NCBI RefSeq assembly: GCF_039542865.1
Contig: NZ_BAABIQ010000002.1
Location: forward strand, 12,989 to 76,988
Length of the DNA: 64,000 bases
Direction of reading: 5' to 3'
From: Olivibacter ginsenosidimutans
GTDB lineage: Bacteria; Bacteroidota; Bacteroidia; Sphingobacteriales; Sphingobacteriaceae
The notes under the pieces were generated by a model that was not told where the DNA came from, ran no database searches, and worked only from the letters and a program-made list of their open reading frames with translations. This document shows positions 30,142-55,509 of this stretch, piece by piece. Within the stretch, counting starts at the first letter, position 1. Each line of letters opens with the position of its first letter. The position numbers were made by a program, and so were the translations under genes.

Positions 30142-31488
30142 ATGGCAAAACGAATAAAGGCAATTAAATGTCCGCATTGTGGTAGTATTGAGAACACCCA
30201 GTTAAAGGACGATTATTACCGCTGTAATAGTTGTGGTACCGAGTATTTTCTAGATAATGACGATGTAAACATCAATTATACCTATCGTTACGAGCACGGC
30301 CAAAGGTTAGCACCCGAAACAAAAAAGCTCATTAAAACGATTTCGATAATTATTGGTGGACTATTTTTATTTTTTGTGATCATCAACATAGTAGGCGCAT
30401 TGGTTGGTAGCCGTTCCAACAGTAAACCAATAGAAACGAATGTGAGCACATCGTATGCACCAACGGTTCCTAAGGTACCGGAAAAGAAGTATTACTGGTA
30501 TAGTAAATCAGATTATTTTTTTGAAGATGCTAACCATAAATTGGTCTATGTACTGGTGGGGGTTAGACGATTGCTTGGAGGTGCATCAGATGATGGTAAC
30601 GTTTTAGCCATTTTCTATGATGTGCAAAACAAAAATAAGGAATTGGCCAAGAGCGAGTTACCCCTAAAATCTGAAAGCCTCAATACCCGCTTCCGCGAAT
30701 TTGAAAATGGTGATTTATATTTCATTGTCGACAATAAACGCCTATTCAAAATAAATCGAAACGATAAATTGATTACCGAAATAACGGCAGAAAAACTAGG
30801 CGAGGTGCCTGAATTGCATGTGGGCTTTGCGAAGATAGAATTTGCGTACGAAAGTGAGGGAGACGGATTCCGCATATTAACGAACGAGGGTAAGCAAGTG
30901 TTTTATTATCCTATAACGGGTAAGGTTTATGACAAGGATGCTTTGTATCGTGCTCAAGGCGAAAGAGCTAGTATTCCAAAAGATACGCCGATCCGTACGG
31001 CGTTTAAATTTTCGGATGAAAGCTTTGAATATCCTGATGAAAAACTTCAATTAATCCAATACCGGTATCGGTCTCCCATGGGTTATCCAAAAAATGAGCC
31101 CCATTTCCGTTGGTCAAAAGATTTTGGCGGTTCAGGGATTTTTACAGAACGCGACCCTTACAAAAAGGTATTGATTAATTCATTTCAGCAGAAAAGAGCA
31201 AGGATTATCGATTTTAAGGATTTTACACCTGGCCGCCTTTATTTTAGTGCGTCAGTATTAGATTTCAACGATAAGTATGTGTTGATTTCTTTTAAACCTA
31301 CACCTGCAGAAGATGAAACCTGTTCGGTGCAATTATTGGATGCTAAAACGGCAGCCATTATATGGACATATGCTACCGATAAAAAATATGTTTCGGCAGG
31401 CCATATCATGACCGACGGATATCGAATAGACAATGAACTGTTAGGCGCTGATGGTAAAGTCAAACAAACGCTTACTATACCGGATTAA
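30142..31488 (+). CDS. membrane protein with N-terminal zinc ribbon (CPHCG...CNSCG), one TM helix and a large C-terminal extracytoplasmic domain (hypothetical; YdjG-like topology)
   Basis: 448 aa. The first 35 aa hold two CxxC pairs. The TM helix is IIIGGLFLFFVIINIVGALVG. Directly upstream of an SPFH-SHOCT gene. Confidence 0.5.
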   Translation: MAKRIKAIKCPHCGSIENTQLKDDYYRCNSCGTEYFLDNDDVNINYTYRYEHGQRLAPETKKLIKTISIIIGGLFLFFVIINIVGALVGSRSNSKPIETNVSTSYAPTVPKVPEKKYYWYSKSDYFFEDANHKLVYVLVGVRRLLGGASDDGNVLAIFYDVQNKNKELAKSELPLKSESLNTRFREFENGDLYFIVDNKRLFKINRNDKLITEITAEKLGEVPELHVGFAKIEFAYESEGDGFRILTNEGKQVFYYPITGKVYDKDALYRAQGERASIPKDTPIRTAFKFSDESFEYPDEKLQLIQYRYRSPMGYPKNEPHFRWSKDFGGSGIFTERDPYKKVLINSFQQKRARIIDFKDFTPGRLYFSASVLDFNDKYVLISFKPTPAEDETCSVQLLDAKTAAIIWTYATDKKYVSAGHIMTDGYRIDNELLGADGKVKQTLTIPD

Positions 31489-31499
31489 AAAATAGATTT

Positions 31500-32501
31500 A
31501 TGAGTATATTCAATGTTTTCAATAATCAGTTGGCTCAAGTAATACAATGGGAGCAGCAAGCCCCTGAGCTATTATGGTATCGATTTCCCTCCTCTAGGAA
31601 TGAAGTAAAAAATGCCAGCAAATTAATTGTAGCACCAGGCCAAGGCTGCGTTCTGGTTTACGAAGGGAAAGTAGCAGATGTGATTGAAGAGGAAGGCATA
31701 TTTAATTTGAAAACGGATAACCATCCATTTATCACCACATTGTTGAACATCCGCAAGAACTTTGAAAGTGAACACAAATTATTTGTCTATTTTTTCCGTA
31801 AAGCGGATGTATTGAATCAGGCTTGGGGAACAGCAACGCCGGTAAAATATGTGGATGGCACATATGGTATCCCCATCAGCATGGGAGCTAATGGAAATTT
31901 TTCCTACCGCATTAGCGATGTGTCGAAACTGTTTAAGCAAGTGATCGGAAATAAGCCATCGTTTACCACAGTAGAGATGAAAGCCATTATCAGTAACCGC
32001 ATCCAAGAGGCTATAGCGGCTTATCTAGCATCTAAAAGCTATTCCTTTCAGGAAATTGATGCACAGTTAGCTAACATGGCGAAGGATATTCAGCAGCAGC
32101 TAGACAAGGAATTTCTAGCGCTTGGCTTGAATCTTTTGGATTTGAAAATTAGCGGAACGCAGTTTGACGAAAAGACACAGTCCCGTATTGCTCGTGTAGC
32201 AGATGTAACAACAGATGTTTTTGCCGCTAAGCAAGCTGGATTGGATTATGTTGATCTGGAAAAATTACGGGCTCTGCGGGATGCCGCACGCAATGAGGGT
32301 GGGCTGGCTGGTGCTGGTTTGCAATTGGGAGCTGGTTTGGAGTTAGGCAAAAAATTTCAGGAAGAAAAGGAAGCGCTACTCAATAAAGATGGTGCAGACG
32401 TAGTCGAAAAATTACGTAAATTGCAATTGCTACATGCAGAAGGTATTATCACTGAGGAGGAGTTTCAGGCAAAGAAAAAGGAACTATTAGCTAATCTTTA
32501 A
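31500..32501 (+). CDS. SPFH/Band-7-like (Band_7_1, YdjI-like) protein with C-terminal SHOCT motif
   Basis: 333 aa. The N-terminus resembles the Band_7_1 family (WEQQAPELLWYRFPSS...IVAPGQGCVLVYEGKV). There is a Gly/Ala-rich linker and a C-terminal SHOCT-like LHAEGIITEEEFQAKKKELL. Confidence 0.65.
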   Translation: MSIFNVFNNQLAQVIQWEQQAPELLWYRFPSSRNEVKNASKLIVAPGQGCVLVYEGKVADVIEEEGIFNLKTDNHPFITTLLNIRKNFESEHKLFVYFFRKADVLNQAWGTATPVKYVDGTYGIPISMGANGNFSYRISDVSKLFKQVIGNKPSFTTVEMKAIISNRIQEAIAAYLASKSYSFQEIDAQLANMAKDIQQQLDKEFLALGLNLLDLKISGTQFDEKTQSRIARVADVTTDVFAAKQAGLDYVDLEKLRALRDAARNEGGLAGAGLQLGAGLELGKKFQEEKEALLNKDGADVVEKLRKLQLLHAEGIITEEEFQAKKKELLANL

Positions 32502-32512
32502 ATAAACACGCC

Positions 32513-32767
32513 ATGAAGAAGGTAATTGGCATTATAGCGGTTTTCATTGTACTTGTTATATTGGCTTATATTGTTTTACAAGTTATTTGGGGTATTGACG
32601 TAGTGCGGGCGGAGACCATTACCAAGTCAATAACTTCCTTGTGCGTATTGGCTATTGGAGCTTTTTTATTAACCTTAATCTTAGCTTTCTTCTTTCGAAA
32701 AGAAGATAGAGGATATCATCAAACAACAGACGGTGTTGCCCAACGAAAATTGGATAACCAAAAGTGA
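32513..32767 (+). CDS. small two-TM membrane protein (hypothetical)
   Basis: 84 aa with two hydrophobic helices. It follows the SPFH-SHOCT gene after an 11-bp gap. Confidence 0.35.
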   Translation: MKKVIGIIAVFIVLVILAYIVLQVIWGIDVVRAETITKSITSLCVLAIGAFLLTLILAFFFRKEDRGYHQTTDGVAQRKLDNQK

Positions 32768-48974: not shown

Positions 48975-49655
48975 ATGAATATTATTAAGAAGAAAATAGT
49001 TTCTGTTTTAGAGCGGAAAATGATAAAAACTGCAAGAGTATTAGCTATACGTTATTGGTATGATCAAAGCATGGTAGAAATAGATCTTCATGTGCCAGAC
49101 ATGAAACCGGCAGACTGGACAAGTGTTCAACATATGAAAATTAAAGTTGCGGAAGGAACATATAGGGATTATTCGCCAACCATGTGGGATATAGAGACTA
49201 AAACTTGTTCATTGATTATCGATACTTCGCATGATGGTCGTGGGGCCCATTGGGCTCTTCAATTAAATAGCGGAGACCTGATTGAATACCTAGGTATAGG
49301 AAGCACTGGACATCGATATGTCGAAAAACAACCCATTATTTGTATCGGAGACGAAAGTAGTCTAGCGCACTTTATCGCCCTAATGCAACTTATTGGAAAG
49401 GATAATGAATTAAAGGGAACAATTGGTTTTTCCAATCCTAATCACCTGACAGAATACCAAGCAAATATACGGGCACCATTTGTCCCATTGCCGAAAGATG
49501 TTGAAGTTATAAAACAATGGATTATTAGCGAATCGCCTAAAAATCATCTCGTGTATATTGCAGGTAGCTATCAGTTGGTATCCGAAATGAAACGTTTCGT
49601 CCGGAATGTACCCGGTTTTCGCGGTACCATAAAAGGCCAAGGCTTCTGGAAATAG
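48975..49655 (+). CDS. siderophore-interacting protein (SIP/ViuB-like FAD-binding reductase)
   Basis: Start moved to ATG 48975. Domain order resembles the protein at 4806..5522 (beta-barrel, then ICIGDESSLAHFIALMQ NAD-binding-like segment). Confidence 0.65.
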   Translation: MNIIKKKIVSVLERKMIKTARVLAIRYWYDQSMVEIDLHVPDMKPADWTSVQHMKIKVAEGTYRDYSPTMWDIETKTCSLIIDTSHDGRGAHWALQLNSGDLIEYLGIGSTGHRYVEKQPIICIGDESSLAHFIALMQLIGKDNELKGTIGFSNPNHLTEYQANIRAPFVPLPKDVEVIKQWIISESPKNHLVYIAGSYQLVSEMKRFVRNVPGFRGTIKGQGFWK

Positions 49656-49801
49656 CCGGAGTAGAACAGTTGCAATCCTTCCTATTGTAGTCACTTTGTA
49701 GCCATTAATCACCACACATGTAGCCACTCCGTATACCTCAATAATCGTCTGACAGGATAGGTAAACTTATCTTTGGTGAACGTTTTTCAAAATTTTGAGT
49801 A

Positions 49802-50788
49802 ATGAGTAAGCCAACATCAAGATTACCTTTCATAGAGATTATTGAATGGGAAGCCCATGACCCCAATCTCTTAATGTGGAAGACTCCAGACGGAGATCGA
49901 GAAATAAAAAATGGTGCAAAACTTATTGTGCGGGATAGCCAGTTGGCTATGCTCATAAGTGAGGGGCAGTTAGCTGGAGTTTTTAAAGCCGGTACACACA
50001 CGTTACATACACAGAATATCCCGATTTTAACACGACTTAAGGGATGGAAATATGGTTTCGAAAGTCCGTTTAAAATAGATGTTTACTTCTTTTCCAATAA
50101 ACAATTTGTAAATCTAAAATGGGGAACACCATCTCCCATAATACTTCGCGATCCGCAATTCGGTCAGGTACGTATAAGGGCTTTTGGAACCTATAATGTG
50201 CGCGTAACAGATGTTGATTTGTTCTTTAAAGAATATGCGGGAAATCGTGAACAACTTGACATTACCGAGTTCGAAAAAAAATTGCGTGATTTTATTGCTC
50301 CTAAATTCGGAGAGGCATTAGCCCTTTCTAAAATAGCCACATTGGATATTTCACAAAATCTTTCGGCATTAAATGCACGTATTCAACCCCTCATTCAACC
50401 TTATTTTGAAAACTTCGGTGTAGAGATTACGCAGTTTACTGTGACAGCCGTTAATTTACCAGAAGAAGTAATAAGCTATTACGATAAGGTAACGGGTATG
50501 AACATGGTGAACAATTTGGAAAATTTCCAGAAATTCAATACGGCCATTGCCACGAGCAATGAGCATAGTAGGATAGGTGAGGGTGCACAACAAGGGCTTG
50601 CCATGGGGATGCTGCTAACGCAGTTGAACCAAACACAAGAACAACAGAAAACAGCATATACATCCACCCAAGAAAATGAAGATGCCATAGCTGATCGTTT
50701 ACAGAAACTTAAAAATTTATTTGATAACGGTTTGATCGATGAATCGGAATATAAGGCTAAGAAAGAAGTTATTTTGGGAGAACTTTAA
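49802..50788 (+). CDS. SPFH/Band-7-like (Band_7_1, YdjI-like) protein with C-terminal SHOCT motif (second copy)
   Basis: 328 aa, paralogous in layout to 31500..32501 (IIEWEAHDPNLLMWKTPDGDREIKNGAKLIVRDSQLAMLISEGQ). C-terminal SHOCT-like LKNLFDNGLIDESEYKAKKEVILGEL. Confidence 0.65.
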   Translation: MSKPTSRLPFIEIIEWEAHDPNLLMWKTPDGDREIKNGAKLIVRDSQLAMLISEGQLAGVFKAGTHTLHTQNIPILTRLKGWKYGFESPFKIDVYFFSNKQFVNLKWGTPSPIILRDPQFGQVRIRAFGTYNVRVTDVDLFFKEYAGNREQLDITEFEKKLRDFIAPKFGEALALSKIATLDISQNLSALNARIQPLIQPYFENFGVEITQFTVTAVNLPEEVISYYDKVTGMNMVNNLENFQKFNTAIATSNEHSRIGEGAQQGLAMGMLLTQLNQTQEQQKTAYTSTQENEDAIADRLQKLKNLFDNGLIDESEYKAKKEVILGEL

Positions 50789-50916
50789 GCGAATGTTCTA
50801 AGAGTTATAACGAAGCAATCTAAAGCCATAGTGATCATTTTTGATCAACGTTTAGATAATCTCTAAGCTGCTTATTTAAATCTGATAACCCAAAACTGCA
50901 TCAATAAATTCAATCA

Positions 50917-51156
50917 ATGAAAGAACATAAATCGTCATCAAGTATAGTGGAACGCCTGAAAGCTCGAGCATTGGCCCAACAGAAAGATACTGTAAAAGTG
51001 GAACTAGCCAAAACAACGGTAAGGACATGCCCGAATTGTGGTGCCGGGAGGGCAAAACAGGATGGACTAACCCATTGCGCTTATTGTGGCTATTGCTTTA
51101 GTGCGCATACACTCGTAGATGGCATACAGATAAAACAAAGTGATAACTCAAAATAG
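50917..51156 (+). CDS. small zinc-ribbon protein
   Basis: 79 aa with CPNCG...CAYCGYC (two CxxC pairs). Confidence 0.45.
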   Translation: MKEHKSSSSIVERLKARALAQQKDTVKVELAKTTVRTCPNCGAGRAKQDGLTHCAYCGYCFSAHTLVDGIQIKQSDNSK

Positions 51157-51217
51157 ATTCAGATAATAGGTATCAAGATAAAAGACCAGTATCACGACAA
51201 GGCACTTGCAACATATA

Positions 51218-52051
51218 ATGGCTAATCAGCTGGTTGATATTTTTTTTACTTTTTACTTTAAGCTAATGGCTCTTTTTTTTAGAAAAAAACAACATAGTAA
51301 CAACGCAAATGCTGAGCAGCGTGAGGATATCGTATCACGTCTACAGGTATTTTTGGCCAGACTAGATGAGAAAGCAAAGCTATTGTATGATGAGGCGAAA
51401 GAAAGTGCACAATCGATAGCTGATGCTGATCCAGATCCTTTCAAGCGTTCTTATTACCAGTTTAAGACAGGTATACAAGGACAATTCCAGGCGTTGTTGC
51501 AAAAGGCTAATACGACTTATCAATCGCAGGTATTACCAAAAGCAAATATGTTTGAACAGATGAAAGTGATGACAATCTTTGCAGCTTGGCATAGTAACTT
51601 TTTACACCTGATGACGGATGTATTTGAAGGGGTGCAGTTGCGCGACCTGGAAAAAGAATATCGGGAAATTATGGACGACTATACGTTGGCCAAAGAGAAA
51701 TTTCATTGTTCGCAATGTGGTGGCAAATTGGAAATCGATCAGTTTTATTACATTTCTACCTACATTACTTGTCCATATTGCAAAACACAAAATACGTTTC
51801 ATCCTGGCACGAAAACACGCTTATTGGAGTTAATTGCTCGTGATTTGGCGGAATATAGGCATCGAGATTTGAAGGAAAACTACCAAAAAGTGCGTAGAGA
51901 ATATGGCGTAAAAGAAGCGGAGCAAGCTTTCAAAAGCTATATGCGTGCCGTTATTGATGAGATGAATCGTATTCAACCCGGAATGGAAATACAGAACGAT
52001 AGGTTTTATGAACGTATAATAGAAGAATATACCCATCACGGAATAGGTTAA
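51218..52051 (+). CDS. hypothetical protein with internal zinc ribbon (CSQCGG...CPYCKT)
   Basis: The ORF-track start is TTG at 51206. ATG at 51218 gives MANQLVDIFF.... Two CxxC pairs about 20 aa apart. Confidence 0.45.
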   Translation: MANQLVDIFFTFYFKLMALFFRKKQHSNNANAEQREDIVSRLQVFLARLDEKAKLLYDEAKESAQSIADADPDPFKRSYYQFKTGIQGQFQALLQKANTTYQSQVLPKANMFEQMKVMTIFAAWHSNFLHLMTDVFEGVQLRDLEKEYREIMDDYTLAKEKFHCSQCGGKLEIDQFYYISTYITCPYCKTQNTFHPGTKTRLLELIARDLAEYRHRDLKENYQKVRREYGVKEAEQAFKSYMRAVIDEMNRIQPGMEIQNDRFYERIIEEYTHHGIG

Positions 52052-52086
52052 ATAACTTTATATATAAATCTTTAAAACAATACGTT

Positions 52087-52869
52087 ATGTTTAAGAAAAT
52101 GTTTAAAAATCTGACAGATAATTTAACGGAGAAGTTAACGGACAATTTAATGAATAACCAAACTTCTAAAAGCCAAGAGAATTACGCCGAGCAAATGAGG
52201 CAGGCTTATGGTGGTCAGATCGATCAACAAAAGTTTGACAGTCAAGTCTCTGCAATGGGGTATACCACTATAAATTCTGCGAAAGAAGACCCCAATGACC
52301 CGCTAATGCAACCCATTCATGGCGTTACCCTTTTTGATTATGCAGCGGGTGCTGGAAAAATGGGTGAAGGTGTTTCTGAAGATCAAATTTGTGTCGCTTT
52401 GGGTATAGAACGCCCCATGTGGGATGAAGCACGTAAACTTTGGGAAGCCCGGATGAAAGAAGACAAAAGTTTCAACGTAGCTAATGTCTATGCAAAGTAT
52501 TACGGAGAATATAAAAAACATGAGAAATTGGGTTCACTTACTCCACTTCCCGGTGCCGCTCCGCAAACAAATGTTCCATCGGAAGAGATCGAAGCGAATT
52601 TGAAACGTATTGAGGAAGACAAATATTTCTTTTTTGAAATGCAAGCGGCCATGCAAGCGGCCTATGATAACGGAATAGATGGAGCGCAATGGTTGCTTGA
52701 AACGATTGGTATTACCGTTTCCCAATTCAATAGCACGGGAGCTAAATATATGACGGATTTTGGTTTGGTGGCACAAATGATGGATTTTCAAGACCAAAAA
52801 CAAAAAGAATATAGTGCAAAGTTTGCTCAGGATTTAGGTGGTAGTATTGCCGACGATGTGCAATTCTAA
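52087..52869 (+). CDS. hypothetical protein
   Basis: 260-aa ORF in an operon-like array with the SPFH-SHOCT and Zn-ribbon genes. No domain recognised. Confidence 0.4.
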   Translation: MFKKMFKNLTDNLTEKLTDNLMNNQTSKSQENYAEQMRQAYGGQIDQQKFDSQVSAMGYTTINSAKEDPNDPLMQPIHGVTLFDYAAGAGKMGEGVSEDQICVALGIERPMWDEARKLWEARMKEDKSFNVANVYAKYYGEYKKHEKLGSLTPLPGAAPQTNVPSEEIEANLKRIEEDKYFFFEMQAAMQAAYDNGIDGAQWLLETIGITVSQFNSTGAKYMTDFGLVAQMMDFQDQKQKEYSAKFAQDLGGSIADDVQF

Positions 52870-52876
52870 TCGAATA

Positions 52877-54790
52877 CTATACCAAATCTTGTAAAAAAGT
52901 ATCCAACTCCACTTCTTTAGGTAAGTGGAGTTTTTGTTTAATACGGTACTTACTCACACGAATGCTTTTAGGTTCTACATTAAAAACAGAAGCCATTTCT
53001 TTCGTAGATAATCTTAAGTGCATATAGGCACAGTACTTGAGATCTAGGGGAGTCAGTTTATGATCAGACAGTTCCTTAAGCTTTTGAAAGAAGCTGGAAT
53101 GGATTTCCTGAAATTCCTTTGTTGATTTGTTAAGGGTTTCCTCATGGCGCAATTCCGTACGGATTATCTTGGCAATCACTCCCTTGTCTTCTTCATCTAC
53201 GAAAGTTTCTAATCTATCTTTTAGCTGTAGGAGTAATTCATTCTTCCGCTCAATTTGCAAGGCATCTGCCAGAGCCTCTCGTTCCATTTGTTCTTTCTGA
53301 ATTTTTAATAGCTCTTGTTCGGCTTTTAGACGTGCCTGCTCCTCCTGTTCCAGTCGCAATTGCATACGAGCATGTCGCTCAGCCTCGGCTTTTTCAACTA
53401 AAAGAAAGCGCTTTTCTTTTTCCCGCATTTGTGCAATGGCTAAGGCGTCTTCTTTTTCCTTTTGCAAATTTAATTGCTGTTCGGTATGCAAACGTATTTT
53501 GTTACGGTAACTGTAATAAAGTAAAATGAGCGAAATGAGGGCTAATACTGCGACACTAGCATACAATATATTTTGAATTTTTCGGCTTTGCTGTTGGGCC
53601 TTAATGTTTTTCATCTCTAACAAAATCCGCTGATTCTCATATTGCGCTTCCAGTTTGTGGGATTGTACGATTTGATTTTGGTCAAAGAGCTTACTATTGT
53701 ACATCTCCTTTTTCCTTAGAAAAGAAAGAGCTTTTTGGTCTTGTCCAATCTTTTCATAAAGTCGGCTCAAACCTTCCGTTACTTGCGTTAACGCATAATA
53801 CTGTGGAAGTTCTGCTTCAGCCAAATGGACATAAGAGTCTTGTAAATAGATCTCTGCCTGCTTATAATTACCATTATGCGTCTCAAGTTCGGCCAATAAA
53901 CCATTAACATTACCATGAATAAGGTAATTCAAATCCTGATCTGCTACCGCTTGTTGAGCGCGAAGTGCATATTTACGGATACTGTCTTGTACGTACTGAT
54001 GGCTTAATTCATGATATTGAAAATAGTGGTTAGCAATATTTAAATTAGCAATAGCATAGGTATTGTTGCCAACAGCTCCTGGATATAGCTTAAACAAATT
54101 AGCTGCTTGATGTAACTTATATAACATACTATCTAAAAGCAATTGATTCTTACGTTGCTGATAGTCCATTTCTATGGCCACAGACTGCGCCGTATAACTA
54201 TTGCTGAGCAGATCGTAATCTTTGGCTCGTTGAGCATATGTTGTACTTAACTGCGCATATTTAGTCGTTAATTTGAGATCATTCCAGCTAGAGTAGACGG
54301 TATAGAGTAAATAATAAAGTCGGGATTTTAAATCATCATCTTTGTTTGCTGGTATAAGAGCAAGGGCGTCTTGTGCGTTTTTTACAGCGAGATCCCGGAT
54401 GTTCAAATAGTTATAATAATTGGCTAAGGCCATTTTTCCCCAAATCTTGGCATACACCTCTTTGGAGTCAGAAGCCATCTTAGCGGCAGAATCAGCATAT
54501 TTTTTTGCTAAATCAAAGTCATTATCGTATAACTTCTGTCTGCTTAATTCTCCAAAAATCTGTACCTGCTGTGTACGGTTTTGTGCTTGTTCGGCTATTT
54601 TTTTTGCAATGACGATCGTTTGTAAATTTGCTTTGAAATGACCACTTAAACGATACCGTTTTGCCTGCTTTAATAGAGAGTCTACCTGTTGTTCTTTTGT
54701 TTCCACTTGTGCTAACGAGATAGCTGGGCCAAATAGCAGTCCGCAAAAGAAAATGATCCGTAGAAGATGCCGGCAACTCATATTTTGCAT
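52877..54790 (-). CDS. TPR-repeat / single-TM / coiled-coil regulator with C-terminal LuxR(GerE)-type HTH
   Basis: 637 aa with signal peptide, TPR-like repeats over about 400 aa, a TM helix (ILYASVAVLALISLILLYY) and an E/K/Q-rich coiled coil. C-terminal HTH: LTPLDLKYCAYMHLRLSTKEMASVFNVEPKSIRVSKYRIKQKL. Confidence 0.75.
   Translation of the reverse strand: MQNMSCRHLLRIIFFCGLLFGPAISLAQVETKEQQVDSLLKQAKRYRLSGHFKANLQTIVIAKKIAEQAQNRTQQVQIFGELSRQKLYDNDFDLAKKYADSAAKMASDSKEVYAKIWGKMALANYYNYLNIRDLAVKNAQDALALIPANKDDDLKSRLYYLLYTVYSSWNDLKLTTKYAQLSTTYAQRAKDYDLLSNSYTAQSVAIEMDYQQRKNQLLLDSMLYKLHQAANLFKLYPGAVGNNTYAIANLNIANHYFQYHELSHQYVQDSIRKYALRAQQAVADQDLNYLIHGNVNGLLAELETHNGNYKQAEIYLQDSYVHLAEAELPQYYALTQVTEGLSRLYEKIGQDQKALSFLRKKEMYNSKLFDQNQIVQSHKLEAQYENQRILLEMKNIKAQQQSRKIQNILYASVAVLALISLILLYYSYRNKIRLHTEQQLNLQKEKEDALAIAQMREKEKRFLLVEKAEAERHARMQLRLEQEEQARLKAEQELLKIQKEQMEREALADALQIERKNELLLQLKDRLETFVDEEDKGVIAKIIRTELRHEETLNKSTKEFQEIHSSFFQKLKELSDHKLTPLDLKYCAYMHLRLSTKEMASVFNVEPKSIRVSKYRIKQKLHLPKEVELDTFLQDLV
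52906..52935 (+). terminator. rho-independent terminator hairpin (ACTCCACTT-8nt-AAGTGGAGT followed by TTTTT)
   Basis: 9-bp perfect stem, 8-nt loop and a T-run. It lies 37 nt after the stop of 52087..52869 and inside the last codons of the convergent LuxR-type gene. Confidence 0.45.
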
Positions 54791-54893
54791 AGGTGTTTAT
54801 TGGCTAAGTTAAAAAAATATCGTACACTAAAGAAAAGAGCTGTTGATATACCTCAAAAAATACTATCTTGAACTGTTTTTCAATGGGCATAAA

Positions 54894-55484
54894 ATGAATA
54901 CTAAACTACAACAGGCTTTTGAACGGTTTGATCAGTATAATCAGCAAGATCCGAATGCATTGATCTGGGAAGAAAAAACCTATCCACAAGAGTATTTTTT
55001 AGCACTTAAACTACATGATTGGGTACTTCGATTAAAACCTGATGCAAATGAAGCTTTACGATTAGCTTCTCGCAGCCAGCATATCGGAAGGTGGAAAATT
55101 GCCCGTAAAGATTATCCGGCAGGAAGAGAGGGTTATCTAAAATGGCGAAAGGAATTGGCCAATTTTCATGCCGACAAATCAGCGTCTATCCTTCAAGAAG
55201 TGGGCTATAGTGAGGAAATTATTCAGAAAGTTCGAAGCATTATTCTTAAAAAAAGAATAAAAGTAGATCAAGACGTACAGACCATGGAAAACGCGTTATG
55301 TTTAGTATTTTTAGCTTATCAGTATGAAACATTTTATCCCAAATACAGGACTAAAATCGTTACTATTTTAAAGAAATCTCTACTGAAGATGGATAGCCAT
55401 GGTCATCAATTTGCGCTAGCTTTACCTTATTCAGAAGAGGGTCTACAATATATCAAAGAAGCATTGCGCTTGATCCAATCGTAA
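54894..55484 (+). CDS. hypothetical conserved protein
   Basis: The ORF-track start is 54843. Internal ATG 54894 gives MNTKLQQAFERFDQYNQQDPN.... Soluble, no motif recognised. Confidence 0.4.
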   Translation: MNTKLQQAFERFDQYNQQDPNALIWEEKTYPQEYFLALKLHDWVLRLKPDANEALRLASRSQHIGRWKIARKDYPAGREGYLKWRKELANFHADKSASILQEVGYSEEIIQKVRSIILKKRIKVDQDVQTMENALCLVFLAYQYETFYPKYRTKIVTILKKSLLKMDSHGHQFALALPYSEEGLQYIKEALRLIQS

Positions 55485-55509
55485 GGCCATTCATTCAGCT
55501 AATGCAATC

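Follow-up and report, generated by a model that had tools for sequence, protein, structure and literature searches.

A conserved SPFH, zinc-ribbon and DUF6620 gene cassette with a candidate membrane regulator in Olivibacter ginsenosidimutans and other Bacteroidota

What holds an SPFH protein, two zinc-ribbon proteins and a DUF6620 protein together in one operon, and what does the putative regulator encoded next to them have to do with it? The question is raised by a stretch of 64,000 nucleotides of Olivibacter ginsenosidimutans (contig NZ_BAABIQ010000002.1, positions 12,989 to 76,988; hereafter the window), in which an operon of four genes (positions 49802-52869, plus strand) encodes an SPFH-SHOCT protein, two zinc-ribbon proteins that we call ZnS and ZnL, and a member of the DUF6620 family. 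The overall best explanation, in which we have moderate confidence, is that the operon makes a soluble SPFH scaffold complex with zinc-ribbon proteins docked onto it, which would lie beneath the membrane, be induced by the regulator and probably serve membrane maintenance or stress signalling. The operon and the gene that faces it are made up as follows (aa, amino acids; TM, transmembrane; HTH, helix-turn-helix).

49802-50788, plus strand: SPFH-SHOCT gene, 328 aa; Band_7_1 domain at residues 26-234, a Gly/Met/Gln-rich linker, SHOCT at 298-325
50917-51156, plus strand: ZnS gene, 79 aa; small soluble zinc-ribbon protein with a basic N-terminal helix
51266-52051, plus strand: ZnL gene in its likely model, 261 aa; soluble helical protein with an inserted zinc ribbon
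52087-52869, plus strand: DUF6620 gene, 260 aa; a variable N-terminal region and a conserved all-helical C-terminal domain of about 190 aa
52877-54790, minus strand: TPR/TM/coiled-coil/HTH gene, 637 aa; convergent with the operon

All five open reading frames (ORFs) that an earlier note had read from this DNA are present in their places, and the proteins of the window are 100% identical to O. ginsenosidimutans proteins at NCBI. A scan for hydrophobic segments found no TM segment in the SPFH, ZnS, ZnL and DUF6620 proteins, and no enzymatic domain was matched among the cassette proteins with Pfam and NCBIfam.

Conservation of the cassette

A genome scan seeded with DUF6620 gave 34 loci from Sphingobacteriaceae, Chitinophagaceae, Cytophagales and Flavobacteriales, and according to local hidden Markov models the genes for SPFH, ZnS, ZnL and DUF6620 are adjacent and in the same order in 31 of them, with gaps that mostly are 2-40 nt. 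The three exceptions are a locus at a contig edge, a short contig with no match to ZnS or SPFH, and an orphan DUF6620 gene. A metagenome scan seeded with the SPFH protein added 80 further loci, and there ZnS is the next gene after every type-2 SPFH orthologue that has enough flanking sequence, most of these also having ZnL and DUF6620. Taken together, genomes and metagenomes give about 50 loci with the same order, spread over Sphingobacteriia, Chitinophagia, Cytophagia and Flavobacteriia (the four-gene order is carried among the metagenome loci L047-L084), and the SPFH orthologues are 50-79% identical across the cassette loci. The earlier note had asked whether the association goes beyond chance co-occurrence, and the gene set in the genome loci, together with all type-2 SPFH metagenome loci that are long enough, says that it does. 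The orphan, in Sphingobacterium sp. LRF_L2 (L028:9968-10609), is a short-form DUF6620 gene that has no SPFH, ZnS or ZnL gene within 10 kb.

The variants of the cassette tell something about which partners belong most closely together. A minimal form (L053-L063) consists of TPR, SPFH and ZnS genes only, with no ZnL or DUF6620; in one of these loci (L058:3028-6281) a TPR regulator and a GTAGAC repeat are followed by genes for an SPFH-SHOCT protein, a 91-aa ZnS and a secreted protein of 321 aa. Since the minimal variant keeps ZnS alone, ZnS is the partner most tightly coupled to SPFH. The gene order is changed at locus L046, where a ZnS-like gene, a gene for 145 aa, ZnL, SPFH-SHOCT, a full-length DUF6620 of 443 aa and a 4-TM protein of 139 aa follow each other, and also at L045, a metagenome-assembled genome (MAG) of Alteromonadales, in which DUF6620 is followed by a ZnS-like ribbon protein and a fusion of ZnL to SPFH-SHOCT. 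This fusion (P0169, L045:1610-3397, MCP4326537.1) contains ZnL, Band_7_1 and SHOCT in one chain, and a second one (P0142) joins the ZnL ribbon to DUF6620. The association persists through changes of order, fusions and phylum boundaries, as is typical of products that act jointly, most simply in one complex.

It could be argued that the cluster has been kept by vertical inheritance only, that its products do not cooperate and that the TPR gene stands beside it by coincidence. Many of the loci do come from related families, and the statistics are not corrected for phylogeny, but the set spans four classes as well as a gammaproteobacterial MAG, with a changed order, two fusions and changing surroundings, and we consider such an explanation highly improbable. 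Two further variants were seen in passing. The protein P0138 (435 aa) consists of ZnL and a C-terminal domain of no recognised family, and in Flavobacterium muglaense the GTAGAC repeat and the SPFH gene are separated by a gene for a multi-TM protein of 110 aa (L036:7359-7691), which by its position may mean that this cassette has acquired a membrane subunit.

The zinc ribbons and their partners

The earlier note made its reading depend on SPFH homology of the 328-aa protein, and that protein is unambiguously SPFH plus SHOCT by Pfam. The Band_7_1 match (PF13421) has an E-value of 3e-72 and 243 bits against a cut-off of 24 and covers profile positions 2-210 of 211, and the SHOCT match (PF09851) at residues 298-325 has an E-value of 1.6e-8 and 34.5 bits against a cut-off of 27. 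A stomatin/NfeD or HflK/C-FtsH type of system does not fit, as the SPFH protein has no TM segment and no NfeD or FtsH gene is found nearby; the hflC model of NCBIfam was hit far under its cut-off, and then only by the other SPFH protein of the window, that of copy 1 (see below). Sequence searches of the PDB found no informative relative of the SPFH, ZnL or DUF6620 protein. Band_7_1 proteins are among the commonest SPFH proteins of bacteria, and to our knowledge YdjI/SamI of Bacillus subtilis is the only one of them that has been studied. Band_7_1-SHOCT is the commonest of the SHOCT architectures (PMC3581485), and in the searchable literature the combination of SPFH and SHOCT was not found beyond the 2013 description of the domain.

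The 79-aa product carries the zinc ribbon that had been read in it, CPNC...CAYC, within the motif CPNCGAGRAKxDGLTHCAYCG and with a conserved tail LTDGIxIKxxDNS; the cysteines 38, 41, 54 and 57 are invariant, and the only Pfam matches of ZnS are under threshold. The second ribbon protein, ZnL, has the ribbon CSQC...CPYC (C148/C151/C169/C172). It was described in the earlier note as a 277-aa protein, and here the ribbon stands but the length is probably 261 aa: the ORF reaches upstream to 51218 (ATG, 277 aa) or even 51206 (TTG, 281 aa), and the start at 51266 is the likely one because the orthologues and the NCBI protein P0041 (261 aa) begin at M21, the third in-frame Met. The 20 codons before the conserved start (51206-51265) encode a hydrophobic stretch, MQHIMANQLVDIFFTFYFKL, that is present in no orthologue; taking the longest ORF as the gene would give ZnL a false membrane anchor. 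ZnL has no Pfam match, and few proteins belong to its family, 198 representatives out of 1.84 billion clusters. Its N-terminus is the short hydrophobic-basic motif MxLFxFNKK. As a start of the type MxLF... recalls helix alpha-0 of PspA, ZnL was considered as a divergent PspA/ESCRT-III protein, which found no support from profiles or fold. Nor could the 281-aa ZnL ORF be taken for the missing N-terminal part of DUF6620, since it has no Pfam match and the N-termini of long DUF6620 proteins are unrelated; the long DUF6620 proteins carry N-termini of their own, and the fusion of the ZnL ribbon to DUF6620 nevertheless exists.

The fourth gene had been noted as a plain hypothetical of 260 aa. The gene is there, but its product belongs to DUF6620 (PF20325; E 7e-23, 81.3 bits against a cut-off of 27), matching profile positions 266-450 of 450, and the N-terminal 265 positions of the profile are variable or absent across the cassette members. 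The N-terminus here, MFKKMFKNL..., is amphipathic and hydrophobic-basic, and judging from their composition the N-terminal motifs of ZnL and of the long DUF6620 forms could bind the membrane or a partner. At the other end the protein has the tail ADD[VI]xF-COOH (ADDVQF here, 52852-52869), which is invariant in the Bacteroidota and in the Alteromonadales locus. It looks like a docking peptide, resembling acidic-aromatic docking tails such as the C-terminus of SSB. No paper that names DUF6620 was found in the searchable literature.

The two ribbons become more understandable when more distant Band_7_1 loci (37-47% identity) are taken into account. The C-terminus of the SPFH protein is there GYF_2, a double zinc ribbon or SHOCT, and the next gene very often encodes a protein of about 365 aa with two N-terminal ribbons, a central domain and a C-terminal TM segment. 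Over 299 columns this partner family aligns with what we take to be the sequence of B. subtilis YdjG (E 5e-42), which serves as a strong lead only. The first 10 and the last 5 residues of that YdjG sequence agree with primers given in PMC8581546. Such a YdjG-type gene comes directly after the Band_7_1 gene in at least 12 distant loci, and ORFs with CxxC...CxxC motifs make up 13 of 40 adjacent ORFs in the distant loci but only 8 of the 160 others (Fisher p = 8.6e-6). Profile comparison with hhalign aligned the ZnL ribbon with ribbon 1 of the YdjG-type proteins (probability 93%, E 2.7e-7), the ZnS ribbon with their ribbon 2 (probability 88%, E 3e-6), and the N-terminal ribbon of the copy-1 protein with ribbon 1 (probability 73%, E 3e-5), these matches spanning only 36-44 Cys-rich columns, and 36-39 in the case of ZnL and ZnS, with pairwise E-values that possibly are inflated; ZnS and ZnL compared with each other gave no significant match. 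On the evidence of these profiles, Band_7_1 proteins are accompanied by one particular pair of zinc ribbons, which here is split over two soluble proteins. The co-occurrence that the earlier note pointed out is real and more general than it had stated, but it is not new, as it is already known from ydjGHI of B. subtilis (PMC8581546; PMC11237479), where the architecture of Band-7 and zinc ribbon in the ydj operon had been noted (PMC11237479). Pairs of a Band_7_1-GYF_2 gene and a following YdjG-type gene are found in many uncultured bacteria (L088-L125, e.g. L097:4971-7373).

Zinc ribbons may of course also be read in another way. The cassette could encode a cytoplasmic complex for nucleic-acid binding or transcription, with ribbons that bind DNA or RNA, a DUF6620 protein that is a helical DNA-binding protein, and an SPFH protein that is only a chaperone. 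We find this improbable and return to the sub-membrane complex as the preferred explanation.

The other SPFH gene of the window belongs to a separate group of genes.

30142-32767: copy 1, three genes with products of 448, 333 and 84 aa

The 448-aa product has a zinc ribbon, a TM segment and a periplasmic domain, the 333-aa product is Band_7_1-SHOCT and the 84-aa product has two TM segments. As the earlier note had it, the two copies differ in gene order, the zinc-ribbon protein coming first in copy 1, and are diverged, their SPFH proteins being 28% identical. A first metagenome scan seeded with the 448-aa protein found nothing, and a protein search with contig look-ups showed homologues of it to be widespread in Bacteroidota. 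The operon of the copy-1 type (a gene of the 448-aa type, Band_7_1 with or without SHOCT, and a gene for 80-85 aa) is found in Tannerella, Hymenobacter, Chitinophaga and a MAG of Flavobacteriaceae, and Hymenobacter has two tandem copies of the 450-aa gene of this type. With one module in about 50 loci and the other in four taxa, each conserved separately, they are two independent instances of one association, just as had been proposed.

The candidate regulator and the upstream element

The TPR gene is the only neighbour that is conserved across the cassette loci, and it is so in three orientations. Most Sphingobacteriaceae have it upstream, co-directional with the cassette; it is convergent downstream in O. 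ginsenosidimutans, its closest relatives and Parapedobacter lycopersici, and divergent upstream in F. muglaense. The protein has hydrophobic segments at residues 9-27, a signal or anchor, and 408-426, a TM segment; the TPR region (about 28-407) lies between them, and a cytoplasmic coiled coil of about 150 residues and a putative, divergent HTH (about 575-630) come after. TPR_12 was matched in 11 and GerE in 12 of 13 orthologues, the latter at the same C-terminal position (best E 4.4e-5), and in the protein of the window both matches are weak and GerE (PF00196) stays under threshold with 13.5 bits against a cut-off of 23.5 (E 0.056). The NCBIfam name "BT3442 family" was discarded for the regulator, its match being far under the cut-off and the papers on that name being of no help, and no studied regulator of the present kind was found in the searchable literature. 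The idea of a TPR/TM/LuxR regulator put forward in the earlier note is strengthened by the adjacency in three orientations and by the operator-like repeat that co-varies with the gene, but the LuxR-type HTH is only weakly detectable, and on its domain layout we regard the protein as a candidate membrane one-component regulator.

Upstream of the operon a direct repeat of 17 bp, GTAGTCACTTTGTAGYC, keeps a constant spacing to a putative -7 box. An alignment of the regions upstream of the SPFH genes gave the conserved form TGTAGTCACTTTGTAGYC, two GTAGYC units 11 bp apart, and the features of transcription control at this locus are as follows.

49686-49703, plus strand: distal operator-like element TGTAGTCACTTTGTAGCC, 17/18 bp; two direct GTAGYC units 11 bp apart
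49719-49736, plus strand: proximal degenerate copy TGTAGCCACTCCGTATAC, from the alignment of upstream regions
49768-49775, plus strand: putative Bacteroidetes-type -7 box TATCTTTG, 27 nt before the ATG of the SPFH gene
52905-52932, no single strand: bidirectional terminator-like hairpin; 10-bp stem, 8-nt loop, T-run

The element has a single exact match in the window, at 49686-49703. All Sphingobacteriaceae loci have it upstream of the SPFH gene and on that gene's strand, and variant forms occur in this place in F. muglaense and in loci of the L058 type (GTAGAC in the latter). When up to two mismatches are allowed there are 18 matches in 792 kb (the window and the loci), and 15 of them are directly before an SPFH gene on the same strand; one more is in the divergent intergenic region between TPR gene and cassette in F. 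muglaense, before the small gene that precedes SPFH, and the remaining two are upstream of an operon for a lipoprotein, a membrane protein and a TPR regulator. Among loci with an adjacent regulator 27 of 30 have the element, compared with 1 of 29 among loci that lack one (Fisher p = 2e-12, not corrected for phylogeny). While the regulator gene shifts between upstream, divergent and convergent positions, the element stays before the operon, which also speaks against an unrelated neighbour that is simply inherited together with the cassette.

The promoters are of two kinds. In those of the Sphingobacterium type, of F. muglaense and of the L058 type (11 loci) the element starts 49-50 nt from a -7 box TAnnTTT[GA], while in those of the Olivibacter/Parapedobacter type (11 loci) the -7 box is 81-82 nt from the distal element and a second, degenerate copy lies 32-33 nt downstream of the first. 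The proximal copy here lies 33 bp beyond the distal one and 49 nt before the -7 box, which is the place of the single site in Sphingobacterium-type promoters. TAnnTTTG is the established -7 consensus of Bacteroidetes promoters, and a sigma-70 promoter scan, whose model is unsuited to Bacteroidota, gave no more matches than shuffled sequence did. No -33 element is visible. Together with a site centred about 50 nt before the -7 box and, in some promoters, another one three helical turns beyond it, this gives the layout expected of an activator-dependent promoter, and we infer from it and from the motifs that the TPR/TM/HTH protein may bind the repeats and switch the operon on upon a periplasmic signal. 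In Sphingobacterium shayense and Sphingobacterium sp. JB170 (L013:1989-3749, L020:3934 onward) a second GTAGTC repeat is found before genes for a 236-aa lipoprotein and a 336-aa multi-TM protein, neither of which has a Pfam match. The second copy upstream of the TPR gene suggests, as far as such a motif can, autoregulation and further members of the regulon.

It is conceivable that the relation also runs in the other direction, and that the SPFH complex is a brake on the TPR regulator, holding its coiled coil until the membrane is stressed, in the manner of PspA on PspF or SamI on SamGH. The length of the cytoplasmic coiled coil would suit this, as would the adjoining of regulator and cassette in three orientations and the minimal TPR-SPFH-ZnS variant, and a brake logic has been published for SamI. 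But most cassettes of Chitinophagia and Cytophagia have no adjacent regulator, and because of this the complex must have a function that is independent of the regulator. We regard the brake as rather unlikely; it is compatible with the induced sub-membrane complex that we prefer, as a feedback loop that may be part of it.

At the other end of the operon, the hairpin terminator of the earlier note does exist after the DUF6620 gene, with -13.7 kcal/mol, z = -2.2 and a U-tract following the stem, but one correction is needed, namely that it overlaps the TPR ORF. It starts 36 nt past the DUF6620 stop, and as no more than 7 nt separate the two stop codons, it falls within the final codons of the convergent gene. 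The spacers within the operon are long here, 128 nt between SPFH and ZnS (50789-50916) and about 109 nt between ZnS and ZnL (51157-51265), compared with the 2-40 nt of most other loci. An Rfam scan of 49000-55500, spacers included, matched no family.

Proposed function and likeness to known systems

According to the explanation that we prefer, the four products would assemble as one peripheral complex beneath the membrane, around an oligomeric, TM-less SPFH scaffold. The ribbons of ZnS and ZnL would dock onto the SPFH-SHOCT oligomer, ZnL would bring in DUF6620, and contact with the membrane would be made by SHOCT and by the short hydrophobic-basic N-termini of ZnL and DUF6620. In Sphingobacteriia and some Flavobacteriia the TPR regulator would sense a periplasmic or envelope signal and activate the operon through the GTAGTC repeats about 50 nt, and here also about 80 nt, before the -7 box. 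The output is, by analogy with SamGHI, probably membrane maintenance or stress signalling.

Several points weigh against this explanation, and the shortness of the ribbon alignments mentioned above is one of them. In the sole published test of SHOCT no oligomerisation was seen (PMC3581485), and what speaks for the membrane association that we propose is a set of short motifs at N-termini, along with a prediction published for SHOCT. PDB searches with the TPR protein and with its C-terminal profile found nothing, and its HTH is a sub-threshold match. The co-variation of motif and regulator could mark a lineage-specific promoter that is used by another factor. Most cassettes of Chitinophagia and Cytophagia have neither regulator nor motif, and for that reason the regulation is not intrinsic to the system. 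Finally, the likeness to SamGHI comes down to the SPFH protein and the ribbons, because PspA, the TPM protein YdjH and the NTF2-like body of YdjG are absent.

A compact unit of four genes with no housekeeping neighbours, with flanks that differ between taxa and a patchy distribution that includes the Alteromonadales variant, also brings to mind anti-phage defence or abortive infection, in which the SPFH protein would be a membrane effector or sensor and the zinc ribbons would recognise the phage. Zinc ribbons and SPFH domains do occur in some phage and defence contexts, which can serve as a lead. But neither the SPFH nor the DUF6620 protein has a match in PADLOC-DB 2.0, and for the ribbon proteins nothing but generic ribbon hits on the zinc fingers of Cas12 came up (E at least 4e-4). 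The matches in PHROGs are SHOCT-only or marginal, and a scan of IMG/VR contigs gave no relative of ZnL. There is no nuclease, NTPase, protease or pore-forming domain and no defence-island neighbour was seen, and a regulator that faces the periplasm, together with a fixed promoter architecture, suits a stress regulon better. We therefore find a role in defence very doubtful.

It is tempting to go further than the induced sub-membrane complex. The cassette would then be an SPFH machine free of TM subunits, with ZnL and DUF6620 as new effector or adaptor folds that take the part which PspA/ESCRT-III has in SamGHI, the repair or remodelling of membranes, with an SPFH complex that feeds back on the regulator, and with the operator GTAGTC-N5-GTAGTC as part of an envelope-stress circuit that runs through the phylum. 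This is speculative, and we think it fairly unlikely to hold in full. That a Band_7_1 protein has zinc-ribbon partners under envelope-stress control is a theme already known, while the four-component cassette, the ZnL family, the split ribbons and the GTAGTC operator appear to be undescribed in the searchable literature. Envelope-stress responses of Bacteroidota are poorly understood, and the locus offers a complete and testable regulatory unit of this phylum, with candidate sensor-regulator, operator, promoter and operon. The pairing of SPFH with two zinc ribbons is, as this locus shows, a family-wide rule that survives even radical repackaging, be it into one membrane protein, two soluble ones or fusions. 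DUF6620 gains a genomic context and ZnL is defined as a previously unannotated family, and the ribbon cysteines, the ADDxxF tail and the 17-bp repeats are handles for experiments.

Among known systems, HflK/C-FtsH, QmcA-YbbJ/NfeD and the flotillins belong to the same superfamily and show the same operonic partnership of a scaffold with a client or adaptor, but they have a TM or hairpin anchor of their own and protease or NfeD partners, which are not found here. The regulator resembles the ToxR/CadC type and the logic of PspBC-PspA-PspF in having a putative periplasmic sensor, one TM segment and a putative cytoplasmic DNA-binding domain, with direct-repeat sites upstream of a weak promoter; ToxR and CadC have an N-terminal HTH of the OmpR type, whereas the putative HTH here is C-terminal and LuxR/GerE-like, the sensor is TPR and a long coiled coil leads from the TM segment to the HTH. 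Copy 1 is closer, with a Band_7_1-SHOCT paralogue beside a protein that is like YdjG in its ribbon 1, in an operon that is conserved in Bacteroidota. Its partners are membrane-anchored in the manner of YdjG/YdjH, a TM protein with a periplasmic domain of about 360 aa and the small 2-TM protein, and it is without ZnS, ZnL, DUF6620 and an adjacent TPR regulator. The distant pairs (L088-L125) of Band_7_1-GYF_2, -ZnR or -SHOCT with a YdjG-type protein have the same immediate zinc-ribbon partner and an interchangeable C-terminal adaptor on the SPFH protein, but there one membrane-anchored protein of about 365 aa carries both ribbons, and neither ZnL nor DUF6620 is found.

The nearest studied system is SamGHI of B. 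subtilis. Its SPFH protein, YdjI/SamI, is cytosolic, reaches the membrane only via YdjG and YdjH, restrains the signalling of SamGH, forms higher-order assemblies and recruits PspA (PMC8581546; bioRxiv 10.64898/2026.02.06.704340). Both systems have a cytosolic, TM-less Band_7_1 protein in an operon with one or more zinc-ribbon partners (PMC8581546; PMC11237479), and both are under control that is linked to the envelope, by sigma-W in B. subtilis and putatively by a periplasm-facing TPR regulator here. The operon of O. ginsenosidimutans has no PspA/IM30 gene and no TPM-domain YdjH (no TPM match with Pfam and NCBIfam), the body of YdjG with its NTF2-like domain and TM segment is absent while the ribbons sit on two separate soluble proteins, and the SPFH C-terminus is SHOCT, whereas it is a double zinc ribbon in SamGHI. 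The helical scaffold of ZnL and the DUF6620 protein are extra here, and phylum and regulator type differ. By analogy, the cassette would work as SamGHI does, though it does not belong to that system.

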